A DNA stretch of 64,000 nucleotides from a bacterium (GCA_035400585.1 DAOMZR010000001.1:370643-434642); one strand, 5' to 3'. Positions 17,503 through 22,441 are shown, numbered from the stretch's first letter. Notes: a model not told the origin generated them from the letters alone. A program made the numbers and translations.

Positions 17503-19063
17503 GAAAGGAGGTGATCCATCCACAGCTTCCGCTACGGATGCCTTGTTACGACTTAGTCCTTGTCGCCGGCCTTACCTTCGGCCCCTAAAAGGGGACTTCG
17601 GGTACTGCCAACTCCCTTGACTTGACGGGCGGTGAGTACAAGACCCGAGAACGTATTCACCGTAGTATAGCTGACCTACGATTACTAGCGATTCCAACTT
17701 CATGAAGTCAATTGCAGACTTCAATCTGAACTGAGAAAAGTTTTTAGGGATTTGCTCCACCTCGCGGTTTGGCGTCCCTTTGTACTTCCCATTGTAGCAC
17801 GTGTGTAGCCCAAGGCGTAAGAACCATGCTGATTTGACGTCATCCCCACCTTCCTCCCATTTAAAACGGGCAGTCTCTCATGACATATAAAACATGAGAT
17901 AAGGGTTGCGTTCGTTTTCCGACTTAACGGTACATCTCACGACACGAACTGACGGCAACCATGCAGCATCTGTCTAGCACCCTCGAAGGCCTTCCTGTTT
18001 CCAGGACATGCAGCTAGATGTCAAACCTTGGTGAGGTTCTTCGTTTATCGTCGAATTAAACCACATGCTCCACCGCTTGTGCGGGTCCCCGTCTATTCCT
18101 TTGAGTTTTAAGCTTGCGCTCGTACTCCCCAGGCGGGATGCTTAACGGGTTACCTTAAATTAACAGCACTGAAAGGGTCGATACTTCCAATACTTAGCAT
18201 CCATCGTTTACGGCGTGGACTACTGGGGTATCTAATCCCATTCGCTCCCCACGCTTTCGTCCCTGAACGTCAGAACTGTCCCAGCAAGTTGCTTTCGCAT
18301 TGAGTGTTCCTGCTGATATTAACGGATTTAACCCCTACACCAGCAATTCCGCTTGCCTCTTCCAGTCTCTAGTTTATCCATCTCTCCCGCAGCCCCCTGG
18401 TTGAGCCAGAGGATTTAACAGGAGATGCGACAAACAGTCTACGGACGCTTTACGCCCAATAAATCCGGATAATGCTTGGGGCCCTCGTATTACCGCTGCT
18501 GCTGGCACGAGGTTAGCAGCCCCTTATTCATTAGGTACTGTCATGATTTCATCCCTAATAAAAGTACTTTACGCCCCGGAGGGCTTCTTCATACACGCGG
18601 CGTCGCTCCTTCAGGCTTTCGCCCATTGAGGAATATTCTTGACTGCAGCCTCCCGTAGGAGTCTGGGCAGTATCTCAGTCCCAGTGAGCCGGGTCATGCT
18701 CTCACACCCGGTACCCGTCGTTGCCTTGGTGGGCCATTACCTCACCAACTAGCTGATAGGACATAGACCCCTCCCGAAGCGCCTGAACTTTAATTAAAAA
18801 GCATAAGCTCTTCAATACCATCGAGTATTATTCTCGCTTTCGCAAGGTTATCCTCGTCTTCGGGGCAGGTTATCAATGTGTTACTCTCCCGTTTGCCATG
18901 CCTTTATACTCATTACCGCATACGAATTTCGGAGAAAAAATATTTCTTTACTAATATTTGTTCTCCTTAGCTCCTACGCAGTGAAGAGTATAAAAGCATT
19001 CGACTTGCATGCCTTAGACACGCCGCCAGCATTCATCCTGAGCCAGGATCAAACTCTCAATAT
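17503..19063 (-). rRNA. rrs: 16S ribosomal RNA
   Basis: The reverse complement of 19039-19058 is AGAGTTTGATCCTGGCTCAG. The reverse complement of 17503-17520 is GGATCACCTCCTTTC, the anti-SD 3' end. Universal 16S blocks run throughout. End coordinates are good to within a few nt. Confidence 0.95.
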
Positions 19064-19212
19064 AAATATTTAGAATTTTGATTGCTCAAAATATAATGTT
19101 ATCATTACCTAATTTTATAGAAAACTATAAAATATTGGATTTATTGAATTGATGCCTGTTAGCATCAAAATCTCACCAAACAAAAAATATAAAAGAACGT
19201 TTTGCAAATTAA

Positions 19213-19241
19213 ATTATAGACACTATCAGAAATAATGTCAA
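19213..19241 (-). promoter_or_regulatory. consensus promoter TTGACA-17-TATAAT in the 5S-16S spacer, directed at 16S
   Basis: On the minus strand, TTGACA lies at 19241-19236, the spacer is 17 nt, and TATAAT lies at 19218-19213. A GTTCTTTT (boxA-like) element follows at 19198-19191. Confidence 0.7.
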
Positions 19242-19260
19242 CTAAATTAAATTGCATAAT

Positions 19261-19374
19261 CTTGGCGATGGTCTACTCTCCCAGGGCTCATGCCCAAGTA
19301 CCATCGACGCTGAAGGGCTTAACTTCCGTGTTCGGGATGGGAACGGGTGTACCCCCATCGCTTAAATCACCAAG
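19261..19374 (-). rRNA. rrf: 5S ribosomal RNA
   Basis: The reverse complement reads CTTGGTGATTTAAGCGATGGGGGTACACCCGTTCCCATCCCGAACACGGAAGTTAAGCCC...GGGAGAGTAGACCATCGCCAAG. This contains the canonical 5S motifs. Confidence 0.95.
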
Positions 19375-19426
19375 ATTATGCAATCTAATAAGATTACATA
19401 AATGTAATTAACTTAAAATTAGAAAA

Positions 19427-22400
19427 GTGGGAAAATCAAACGACTTATTAGTACTCCTCAGCTGAATCCATTACTGGACTTACACTTAGAGCCTATCAAC
19501 CCTATCATCTCTAGGGAGTCTATGAAACCTAATCTTAGAGACAGCTTCGCGCTTATATGCTTTCAGCGCTTATCTTAACCGAAGGTAGCTACCCAGCAAT
19601 GCCCTTGGCAGAACAGCTGGTACACTAGAGCTTCGTCCTTCCCGGTCCTCTCGTACTAAGGAAGGGCCTCTTCAAGTTTCCACGACCATAGTGGGTAGGA
19701 GACCGACCTGTCTTACGACGGTCTGAACCCAGCTCGCGTGCCGCTTTAATGGGCGAACAGCCCAACCCTTGGGAGCTTCTCCACCCCCAGGATGCGACGA
19801 GCCGACATCGAGGTGCCGAACCACGCCGTCGCTGTGGACGCTTGGGCGTGACTAGCCTGTTATCCCCGGAGTAGCTTTTATCCGATGAGCTTCCACCATC
19901 CTACATTGAATGGTCGGATCACTAAGTTCCGCTTTCGCGACTGCTTGACTGGTAAGTCTCGCAGTAAAGCTGGTTTATGCCTTTACACTATCTCTCGGGT
20001 TTCCATTCCGAGATAACCAACCTTTGTAAACGCCTCCGTTACCTTTTGGGAGGCATCCGCCCCAGACAAACTACCCACCAGACACTGTCCCACGTAATAC
20101 GTGGTTAGAATTAAAAGCACACAAGGGTGGTATCTCACTGGCGCCCGAAGGCTCCCACCTATTCTGAACATGCATACCCCTAATCCAATATCAAGCTGTA
20201 GTAAAGCTTCACGGGGTCTTTTCGCCCTACTATGGTTAACGAGCATCTTTACTCGTATTGCAATTTCGCCGAGTTCTTCGTTGAGACAGTGAACAAGTGG
20301 TTAAGCCATTCGTGCAGGTCGGAACTTACCCGACAAGGAATTTCGCTACCTTAGGACGATTATAGTTATCGCCGGCGTTCATCCGCGCTTCAATTCAGAG
20401 CTTCTCCCACCGAAGTGAAATAACCCCTCCTCTTAACGTTCGGACACTGGCCAGGCTTCACCCTCTATACATCATCTTTCGATTTAGCAGAGAGCTGTGT
20501 TTTTGTTAAACAGTCCCTTGTTCTCTTTAGCTGTGGCCCTGCAAACAGGGCAGGCCTTATCTCGAAATTACGGCCGCTGTTTTGCCGAGTTCCTTAACGA
20601 AGATTCTCTCGTACACCTTAGGCTTCTCGCCTCATCTACCTGTGTCGGTTTTAGTACGGATACTATAATTTTTAACCCTAGAAGTTTTTCTTGACAATTC
20701 TTTAACCTAAATCGGATCCACCGAGGCTTCACCTCTAGACAATCCCTTGAAATTGTTGATCCGGATTTACCTAGATCATTTCTTGGAACAATCAACGCTC
20801 ATACCAATAAAACGCTTAAACCTTAGAATTGTGTCCCTCCATCAGAAATTACAGTAGTGCTGGAATATTAACCAGCTTATCCATCGACTTCTCTTGCACT
20901 ACACAAGATACGCCTTAGGACCGACTAACCCTGGGTCGATTTACGTTGCCCAGGAAACCTTAGATTTTCGGTGGGCAGGGTTTTCACCTGCCTTTATGCT
21001 ACTCATGCCAACATTCTCACTTCCGTTCGCTCCACCAAGACTCACGACTTGGCTTCAGTGCTGAACAGAACGCTCCTCTACCACTCCCTGCTAAAAGCAG
21101 AAAGTTCGCATCTTCGGTAATATGCTTAGCCCCGATAAATTTTCGGCGCGGAACAACTTGATTAGTGAGCTATTACGCTATCTTTAAAGGATGGCTGCTT
21201 CTAAGCCAACCTCCTAATTGTCGCGGTCACAACACCACCTTTTACACTTAGCATATATTTAGGGACCTTAGATTGCGATCTGGGCTGTTTCCCTTTAGAC
21301 TGATGAACCTTAGCGCCCATAGTCTGACTCCTGAGTTATATTTACTGGTATTCGGAGTTTGGTTAAAGACGGTATCTTGCGACCCGCCCTCATTCAGTGC
21401 TCTACCCCCAGTAATAAACACTCAAGGCTATCCCAAAAGATATTTCGAGGAGAACCAGCTATCGCCGAGTTCGATTGGAATTTCACCGCTAACCACAGCT
21501 CATCCCCTAGTGTTGCACGGCTAGTGGGTTCGGTCCTCCATGTGGATTTCTCCACACTTCAACCTGGCCATGGTTAGATCACCCGGCTTCGGGTCTTGTC
21601 CATGCGACATATCAATTATCATATTGAAATAAGAAGCATCTTATTCCAATAAGATAACTGAAACGGGCTATTAACCCTCGCTTTCACTCCGCATATTTTC
21701 CATAGGAACTTATGCAAGCCACATAGAACAAACTCGTTGGCTCATTCTTCAATAGGCACGCCGTCACCGTGCAAGCACGGCTCCGACTCCTTGTAAGTAT
21801 ATGGTTTCAGGTACTATTTCACCTCCCTCACCGGGATGCTTTTCACCTTTCCCTCACGGTACTTGTTCACTATCGATCATAAAAAGTATTTAGCCTTGGG
21901 TTATAGTCAACCCAGATTCATACGGGATTTCACGAGGCCCGCACTACTTAAGAACGATCATGCTAAAGTAATATTTTTTTCACTTACGGGACTATCACCC
22001 TCTTTAGTTGAACTTTCCAGTTCATTTAGTTAAAAATATTATTTATGACTTTAGTCCATTTTATTCAAGAAATGAAAACAATCGTCTTACAACACCTTAT
22101 AAACATGTGGACTTGACTCCTTCTACAATATTTCTTTCACAAAAGTAAAATTAATAATTGCTCGGTTTATAAAGTTTAGGCTCCTCCCCTTTCGCTCGCC
22201 ACTACTAAGGGAATCAAATATTTTTTCTTTTCCTCCGGCTACTAAGATGTTTCAGTTCACCGGGTTTACCCCCTGCTAAATGCAGGGCACTCTATCTTCA
22301 ATAGAGTAGGTTTCCCCATTCGGAGATCATCGGATCAAAGGTTGCTTGCCACCTCCCCGAAGCTTATCGCAGGCTGCTACGTCCTTCATCGTCTTTTTAT

Positions 22401-22441
22401 GTCAAGGCATTCACCATATACCCTTAACGAGATTTTCCCAC
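19427..22441 (-). rRNA. rrl: 23S ribosomal RNA
   Basis: The reverse complement near 22400-22430 is GTTAAGGGTATATGGTGAATGCCTTG, which is 23S 5' region. Conserved domains continue through to 19440-19500, the 3' region. The terminal helix is GTGGGAAAATC / GATTTTCCCAC. End coordinates are approximate. Confidence 0.93.

Follow-up and report, generated by a model that had tools for sequence, protein, structure and literature searches.

Ribosomal RNA genes in the order 23S-5S-16S, with a lineage-specific predicted internal promoter, in a Falkowbacteria-related member of the Patescibacteria

In the textbook view, the gene order 16S-23S-5S and co-transcription from a single promoter balance the stoichiometry of the ribosomal RNAs (rRNAs) and order the assembly of the ribosome. 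Here, we analyzed an rRNA locus with another order, 23S-5S-16S, in a bacterial DNA stretch of 64,000 nucleotides (nt) (DAOMZR010000001.1:370643-434642, assembly GCA_035400585.1), referred to as the window, with positions counted from its first letter. This order has been described in three SR1 genomes, where it was found after polymerase chain reaction (PCR) from 16S to 23S had failed, and it was then called previously unseen (Camanocha & Dewhirst 2014, PMC4192840). The literature that we searched, which included work on the ribosomes and complete genomes of the candidate phyla radiation (CPR), on Falkowbacteria and on rRNA gene nomenclature, contained no report of the 23S-5S-16S order beyond that paper. 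The gene order has been known from SR1 since 2014; new here is its occurrence in a different lineage of the CPR that uses the standard genetic code. To this, sequence comparison adds a difference between sister lineages: an internal 16S promoter is predicted in the lineage of the window (lineage A) and missing from the other (lineage B).

The SR1 (Absconditabacteria) loci resemble that of the window in gene order on one strand and in belonging to a CPR host with a small genome. However, SR1 reads UGA as glycine (genetic code 25), whereas the organism of the window uses the standard code, and, judged by initiation factor 2 (IF-2), its closest named relatives belong to Falkowbacteria rather than to SR1. 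Nothing is said in the SR1 report about promoters, processing stems or antitermination signals, and the comparison with the window is one of gene order. The canonical rrn operon of Escherichia coli and Bacillus subtilis (16S-tRNA-23S-5S) shares with the window a location on one strand, a strong sigma-70-type promoter, an end terminator, and separate leader/trailer helices for 16S and 23S; the boxA-type signals before both of its large rRNAs have putative counterparts in the window. The window differs from it in being circularly permuted and in having no spacer tRNA. In addition, the second promoter of the window would be internal to the operon, at a distance of 3.5 kb from the first, whereas the canonical second promoter stands in tandem upstream.

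Unlinked rRNA genes, as in Thermus, Rickettsiales, Helicobacter and many Patescibacteria, are another described arrangement. Brewer et al. (bioRxiv 10.1101/705046) scored a 16S gene as unlinked if no 23S gene lay within 1,500 bp downstream, and found Patescibacteria to be commonly unlinked. The 16S gene of the window is followed by a terminator and a PLD-family gene, with no 23S gene within 1,500 bp, and falls under this definition; as a further likeness, lineage-A 16S has a predicted promoter of its own. In contrast to unlinked genes, however, the genes of the window are not dispersed: 16S begins 195 nt after 5S, no terminator was found in the interval, and the separate promoter is missing from relatives.

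Gene order and its conservation

Rfam covariance models placed the three rRNA genes on the minus strand, all within 4.9 kb:

22439-19427, minus strand: 23S rRNA gene (RF02541, 2499 bits, model positions 1-2925), full length and without a large insertion
19374-19260, minus strand: 5S rRNA gene (RF00001, 95.3 bits, model positions 1-120)
19064-17504, minus strand: 16S rRNA gene (RF00177, 1428 bits, model positions 1-1533), full length

The genes are adjacent on one strand, and their order is not the canonical 16S-23S-5S. An earlier model-generated reading of the window (the original prediction) had given coordinates that agree with Rfam to within 1-2 nt, and its 23S-5S-16S order on the minus strand was borne out by the Rfam models and by the related loci; its value of 187 nt for the 5S-16S spacer becomes 195 nt with the Rfam boundaries. 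ARAGORN and Rfam, applied to the whole window, found no tRNA in any rRNA spacer, in agreement with that prediction; the four tRNAs of the window all lie at 46421-46751 on the plus strand.

An assembly artifact, an explanation that we regard as next to impossible, would mean a false (chimeric) junction, either in the 5S-16S spacer or in the upstream flank of 23S, or the collapse of two tandem canonical 16S-23S-5S operons into one. It draws on the facts that rRNA genes are classic sites of misassembly in metagenomes, that other bacteria have canonical operons in tandem with little distance from 5S to 16S (loci L015, L041, L127 and L140), and that one public metagenome-assembled genome (MAG) of this clade mixes two populations. 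However, a 140-kb JGI contig was identical to the window (100%) across 16001-24200, and a SPAdes contig from another sample (ENA ERZ795044 NODE_43) covered 17500-24200 with 13 mismatches, and thus represents a different strain. A MEGAHIT contig (ENA ERZ27257461) covered 16001-19867, two further contigs covered 19745-24200, and the two protein genes flanking the rRNA locus were found in many public assemblies. Because independent assemblies, from different samples and assemblers, cross both rRNA junctions, the order is not an assembly artifact, which answers the concern raised in the original prediction about the 5S-16S junction and the upstream flank of 23S. The junctions also recur in 13 related contigs, with lengths of up to 567 kb. 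A collapsed tandem repeat was excluded: it would place unique flanks before 16S and after 5S, which was never observed here, whereas here the 23S leader and the 16S trailer each border on unique protein genes, and leaders and trailers are complementary in the way expected of the permuted order.

Relatives were collected by pattern scans and by synteny. GTDB species representatives were scanned with a loose 5S...16S pattern whose 5S anchor, GAGAGTAG, was weak; the matches were mostly due to chance and are no census. Among the matches listed, a real 5S gene stood ahead of 16S in 7 of 119 loci, and two contigs of one Patescibacteria MAG (L014 and L101) had the same order and the same flanks as the window. 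Two other Patescibacteria matches (L045 and L089) had no 5S gene and were dropped as candidates. Relatives were also reached through homologues of the downstream PLD gene, which were followed to their contigs. On the 567-kb contig L130, 23S-5S-16S lies between the same two protein genes as in the window, and L136 has 23S-5S-16S-PLD, with a 16S identity of 94%. In L132, L134, L135 and L137, 16S lies directly upstream of the PLD gene, and a contig end interrupts the locus. The more distant L131, L133, L138 and L139 have no rRNA gene beside the PLD gene, where other genes are found; synteny with the PLD gene thus recovers the rRNA locus in closer relatives only. Finally, a scan of JGI metagenomes for the 5S core motif, a gap of 227-287 nt and the start of 16S, with a complete listing, returned 13 matches, of which 10 belonged to the clade, and all 10 were 23S-5S-16S. 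Matches outside the clade were a tandem canonical operon (L140), a Firmicute-like locus cut inside 16S (L146) and an acidobacterial contig (L145).

The 23S-5S-16S order was present in 13 loci of the clade, that is, in every related contig that reaches the 5S-16S junction (named loci: L101, L130, L136, L014, L142-L144, L147 and L149-L152). These loci have at least nine distinct spacer sequences, and their 16S genes are 94-98% identical to that of the window. Since the order recurs in thirteen related contigs, the comparison with related genomes proposed in the original prediction indicates that it is a genuine inherited rearrangement.

The G+C content of the window is about 31%. Long open reading frames (ORFs) contain no in-frame TGA, and TGA serves as a stop codon; hence, the host uses the standard genetic code. 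Homologues of IF-2 carry the label 'Patescibacteria group bacterium' at 74-88% identity and, repeatedly, 'Candidatus Falkowbacteria' at 64-68% identity, indicating that the host is an uncultured, small-genome member of the Patescibacteria (CPR) related to Falkowbacteria. It occurs in anaerobic-digester samples, such as those of JGI 3300010357, 3300009696 and 3300009781. An SR1 identity was rejected, given that TGA is nowhere read as sense and that the IF-2 relatives are Patescibacteria and Falkowbacteria.

L014 and L101 correspond to GenBank JALNZW010000005 and JALNZW010000009 of the MAG 'Patescibacteria group bacterium SO_2017_LW2 bin 120'. They overlap in the 23S-5S-16S region with an identity of only 91.8%, so this MAG mixes two related populations. 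L014 was considered as a chimera of L101-like and L136-like genomes, but its 93.5% identity to L136 and a 326-nt insertion of its own in 23S led us to treat it as a further taxon. Insertions missing from the window were found at window-23S position 2722 in L014 (identical to L148; 326 nt) and in L147 (about 745 nt), and at position 2092 in L150 (about 745 nt); the last codes for a LAGLIDADG homing endonuclease (L150:5940-6392, 7.7e-26).

Promoters and transcription

The predicted sites of initiation and termination are as follows:

22782-22754, minus strand: 23S promoter, TTGACA-17-TATAAT, 12 of 12 consensus positions, about 315 nt before 23S
19241-19213, minus strand: internal 16S promoter, TTGACA-17-TATAAT, 12 of 12 consensus positions, 20 nt after 5S
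17367-17338, minus strand: intrinsic terminator after 16S, with a 13-bp stem and a T-run; bidirectional

A consensus scan of 16-24.5 kb returned exactly two 12/12 sites, both on the minus strand and exactly where the original prediction had put its two perfect promoters. The whole window contains six perfect sites against 0.02 expected from shuffled sequences, so that matches to the full promoter consensus are a genuine property of this genome. The 23S promoter was perfect in all five loci that reach the region (the window, L014, L130, L152 and L150), which represent both lineages, and its hexamers are invariant across the window, L014 and L130.

The internal promoter separates the two lineages. 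It was perfect in all five lineage-A loci (the window, L101, L149, L152 and L130), with substitutions confined to the 17 nt between the hexamers; even in L130, whose 5S-16S spacer is overall only 76% identical, both hexamers are perfect. By contrast, it was missing, as a gap of about 25 nt, from all eight lineage-B loci (L014, L136, L142, L143, L144, L147, L150 and L151; at least five distinct sequences). No substitute promoter was found in the L136 spacer, where the best site matches only 9 of 12 positions and lies downstream of the leader stem, and the whole L150 locus contains one perfect promoter, which precedes 23S. Conservation of the hexamers across lineage A, while the bases between them vary, indicates purifying selection on a lineage-specific element with predicted promoter activity.

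Without this promoter, the lineage-B loci keep an intact 16S gene together with its boxA-like motif and the strand of the processing stem that lies in the 16S leader (8 of 8), and the four that reach the 3' end of 16S keep both the trailer strand and the terminator after 16S. Because the promoter is absent while 16S and its signals are intact, these sequences suggest read-through from 23S-5S as the sole source of 16S in lineage B. The sequence context after 5S is the same in lineage B as in the window, and a scan of the minus strand between 5S and 16S (19260-19064) found no terminator-like site. The terminator after 16S shows a compensatory change from A-U to G-C in L130, and L132, L134, L136, L142 and L143 have a different hairpin with a T-run in the same place.

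These comparisons make it likely that the locus is one permuted operon, in the order promoter, 23S, 5S, lineage-specific internal promoter, 16S and terminator, since lineage B would supply its 16S solely by read-through, and lineage A has the same sequence after 5S. The original prediction had instead seen a permuted form of unlinked rRNA genes, with 23S-5S and 16S as neighboring units that are initiated separately. In that case, 23S-5S transcripts would end after 5S, and 16S would be transcribed only from its own promoter, leaving the genes adjacent but functionally unlinked. The perfect 16S promoter, conserved in five lineage-A loci with a variable stretch between its hexamers, is compatible with this arrangement, as are the T-rich run after the extended 5S helix and the boxA-like element and leader stem strand that transcripts from this promoter would include. 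However, two units go further than the data allow: 5S and the 16S promoter are only 20 nt apart with no terminator-like site between them, eight lineage-B loci with the same sequence after 5S have no promoter and an intact 16S with all its signals, and in L150 a single perfect promoter serves the whole locus. We therefore consider two independent units unlikely.

The 23S-5S-16S order would result if a canonical operon were duplicated in tandem and genes were then lost reciprocally from the two copies. Such a route would also leave the former promoter, with its leader, precisely at the 5S-16S junction, and the internal promoter could then mainly serve something other than the supply of 16S, for example as a relic of the ancestral operon promoter, with little function in lineage A and lost in lineage B. 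A tandem intermediate exists in nature: in tandem canonical operons of Chloroflexi (L015 and L041) and Desulfatiglandales (L127), and in L140, 5S is followed by 16S within about 200-290 nt on the same strand. There, however, another 23S follows the 16S and 16S precedes 23S, whereas the window has unique protein genes on both sides; tandem operons are plausibly an evolutionary intermediate and not the same arrangement. A relic would also be in line with lineage B managing without the promoter, and with a 10-nt direct repeat, AATTTAATTT (19253-19244 and 19215-19206, minus strand), that brackets the 16S-promoter segment absent from lineage B. This repeat could be the mark of an insertion or of slippage, or a chance occurrence in AT-rich DNA. 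Against a relic stands the signature of purifying selection described above, which extends to the divergent L130, and we judge a relic promoter of this kind highly improbable.

The four perfect promoter sites outside the rRNA locus (1769-1797, 2378-2406 and 2937-2965 on the minus strand; 52089-52117 on the plus strand) all read TGATATAAT and thus also have the TG of an extended -10 element, which both rRNA promoters lack.

Processing helices and antitermination-like signals

Each rRNA is enclosed by its own helix, formed from its flanking sequences:

22455-22431, minus strand: 5' strand of the 23S helix, TTAAAGTTAGAAATGTGGGAAAATC, pairing with 19437-19413
19437-19413, minus strand: 3' strand of the 23S helix, GATTTTCCCACTTTTCTAATTTTAA, pairing with 22455-22431
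19388-19367, minus strand: 5' strand of the extended 5S helix I, TTAGATTGCATAATCTTGGTGA, pairing with 19268-19247
19268-19247, minus strand: 3' strand of the extended 5S helix I, followed by TTTAATTTA; no canonical terminator
19180-19145, minus strand: leader strand of the 16S helix, with its core, GCTAACAGGCATCAATTCA, at 19163-19145, pairing with 17411-17377
17411-17377, minus strand: trailer strand of the 16S helix, beginning TGAATTGATGCCTGTTAGC, kept in each of the 12 distinct loci whose sequence extends to the trailer

The 23S helix had a folding energy of -37.0 kcal/mol, against -15.5 +/- 3.4 kcal/mol for shuffled sequences. Its 25 pairs were formed in 98.4% of alignment cells, compared with 34-63% when the strands were slid, and three of them showed compensatory changes, including G-C, G.U and A-U at one position. 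For the extended 5S helix (22 pairs), 97.7% of cells were paired, compared with 33-43% when slid; two pairs were compensatory (G-C to A-U or the reverse in 4 of 8 sequences), and none of 500 shuffles reached the covariation score. The full leader and trailer of 16S gave -72.3 kcal/mol, against -35.9 +/- 4.6 kcal/mol for shuffles, with -44.4 kcal/mol for the core duplex. In this helix of 34 pairs, 87% of cells were paired, compared with 29-45% when slid, and two pairs were compensatory. Its 19-bp core is near-invariant, with one compensatory change from C-G to U-A, one G.U pair and one uncompensated mismatch, and its distal part is poorly conserved. These helices are presumably cleaved by RNase III.

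Putative antitermination signals precede both large rRNAs:

19198-19191, minus strand: boxA-like element GTTCTTTT, about 15-22 nt after the -10 hexamer of the 16S promoter; predicted function
22650-22617, minus strand: 23S leader hairpin GACCGC-loop-GCGGTT (22650-22632), followed by a T-run and TTCTTTGTCAAAA; terminator-like in the scan

The start site predicted for the 16S promoter lies about 7 nt after the -10 hexamer. The boxA-like octamer had been proposed in the original prediction at this position, where it was found, and its GTTCTTT core stands 141-168 nt upstream of 16S in all 13 clade loci, with divergent flanks. The same core recurs in the leader of the Firmicute-like L146 (TGTTCTTTGAAAACT) and is identical to TGTTCTTTGAAAA there. 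GTTCTTTT resembles the Gram-positive-type boxA core, as stated in the original prediction; our literature search yielded no citable boxA consensus for the host phylum. In the 23S leader, the CCGC/GCGG stem is kept and the loop varies in L014 and L130. In the window, the hairpin is followed by T6-CTTTGTCAAAA, with the motif TTCTTTG; in L150, GTTCTTTTAT comes immediately after it. We propose that the hairpin and TTCTTTGTCAAAA form a boxB-like and boxA-like antitermination signal, by analogy with canonical operons, in which nut-like boxB-boxA-boxC elements lie ahead of both 16S and 23S, with boxC within the RNase III duplex (PMC6614801).

In a single permuted operon, transcription would start at the consensus promoter about 315 nt upstream of 23S, and the polymerase would pass 23S, 5S and 16S to the intrinsic terminator about 140 nt after 16S. 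The boxA-like (TTCTTT) element ahead of each large rRNA, presumably bound by NusB/S10, would make the polymerase resistant to termination, and the RNase III whose gene lies 7 kb away would presumably cut the 23S, 5S and 16S helices. In lineage A, the internal promoter would add 16S transcripts that retain the boxA-like element and the leader stem strand, and it probably tops up or uncouples the supply of 16S at the distal end of the operon. Since every rRNA comes with maturation signals of its own, the new order would be tolerated; with a signal and a helix for each gene, maturation should be independent of gene order.

Several points weigh against this model. Read-through across 5S-16S in the window's own lineage is inferred from its relatives, the extended 5S helix followed by TTTAATTT might terminate some transcripts, and lineage B might have a non-consensus 16S promoter that is invisible to a simple scan. 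The hairpin and T-run in the 23S leader, about 110 nt into it, score as an intrinsic terminator; this hairpin could be a boxB-like element, an attenuator overridden by antitermination, or both. As a word, GTTCTTTT is not enriched in the window (11 occurrences against 10.4 expected). The covariation of the 16S helix is not statistically significant, its core being almost invariant, and the 16S helix of L136 contains an uncompensated mismatch; none of our conclusions depends on the frequency of the octamer or on this covariation.

Genes for candidate factors lie near the locus. NusB (30311-30826, minus strand), next to the gene for ribosomal protein L32, and RNase III (29521-30219, minus strand) are encoded 7-8 kb upstream, and a SuhB-family inositol monophosphatase (12110-12883, plus strand) is encoded 4.6 kb downstream. 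SuhB is part of the rRNA antitermination complex of E. coli (PMC6614801).

Implications and neighboring genes

A stably inherited circular permutation would mean that the order itself is dispensable, provided that each gene keeps its own antitermination signal and processing helix. Surveys that look for 23S downstream of 16S would score such genomes as unlinked and leave the permutation unrecognized; some Patescibacteria scored as unlinked may thus have permuted operons like that of the window. Tentatively, and with rather less than even confidence, we suggest that 23S-5S-16S is a recurrent or anciently shared single-operon layout of the CPR, hidden within the unlinked category of surveys. If so, the order would be more than a peculiarity of SR1, and the sister lineages of this clade, equal in gene order and differing only in a perfect internal 16S promoter, would offer a natural experiment on the role of gene order and single-promoter stoichiometry in ribosome biogenesis. 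Sister lineages with and without the promoter also provide a clean comparative system for the role of an internal rRNA promoter.

In another phylum, the contig L145 (JGI Ga0326728_10008335) may offer a further example of permuted or unlinked rRNA genes. It has 5S at 8854-8946 and 16S at 7130-8665, then 7 kb of protein genes and no 23S, and the homologues of its polyphosphate kinase are named Acidobacteriota. Two relatives of L145 have no rRNA genes at the corresponding position.

Directly upstream of the 23S promoter, three overlapping ORFs (22826-26913, minus strand) look like a defense cassette of the defense-associated reverse transcriptase (DRT) type. One encodes a reverse transcriptase that matches defense-associated models (PADLOC RT_UG26, 1e-34, and RT_UG17), and the others encode a 567-amino-acid (aa) protein without a Pfam or PADLOC match and a PLD/DrmC-like protein of 404 aa. 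This DRT-like cassette is present in the window, L130 and L014, and absent from L150.

Farther along the window, 11038-11616 (plus strand) encodes a member of the Translin family (Pfam, 1e-20), which is unusual among bacteria, and the gene is kept in the PLD-UvrA-like-patatin block of all relatives examined. Next to it, 8008-11034 (plus strand) encodes a 1008-aa protein in which two T2SSE (type II/IV secretion ATPase) domains are fused; it is likewise kept in relatives.

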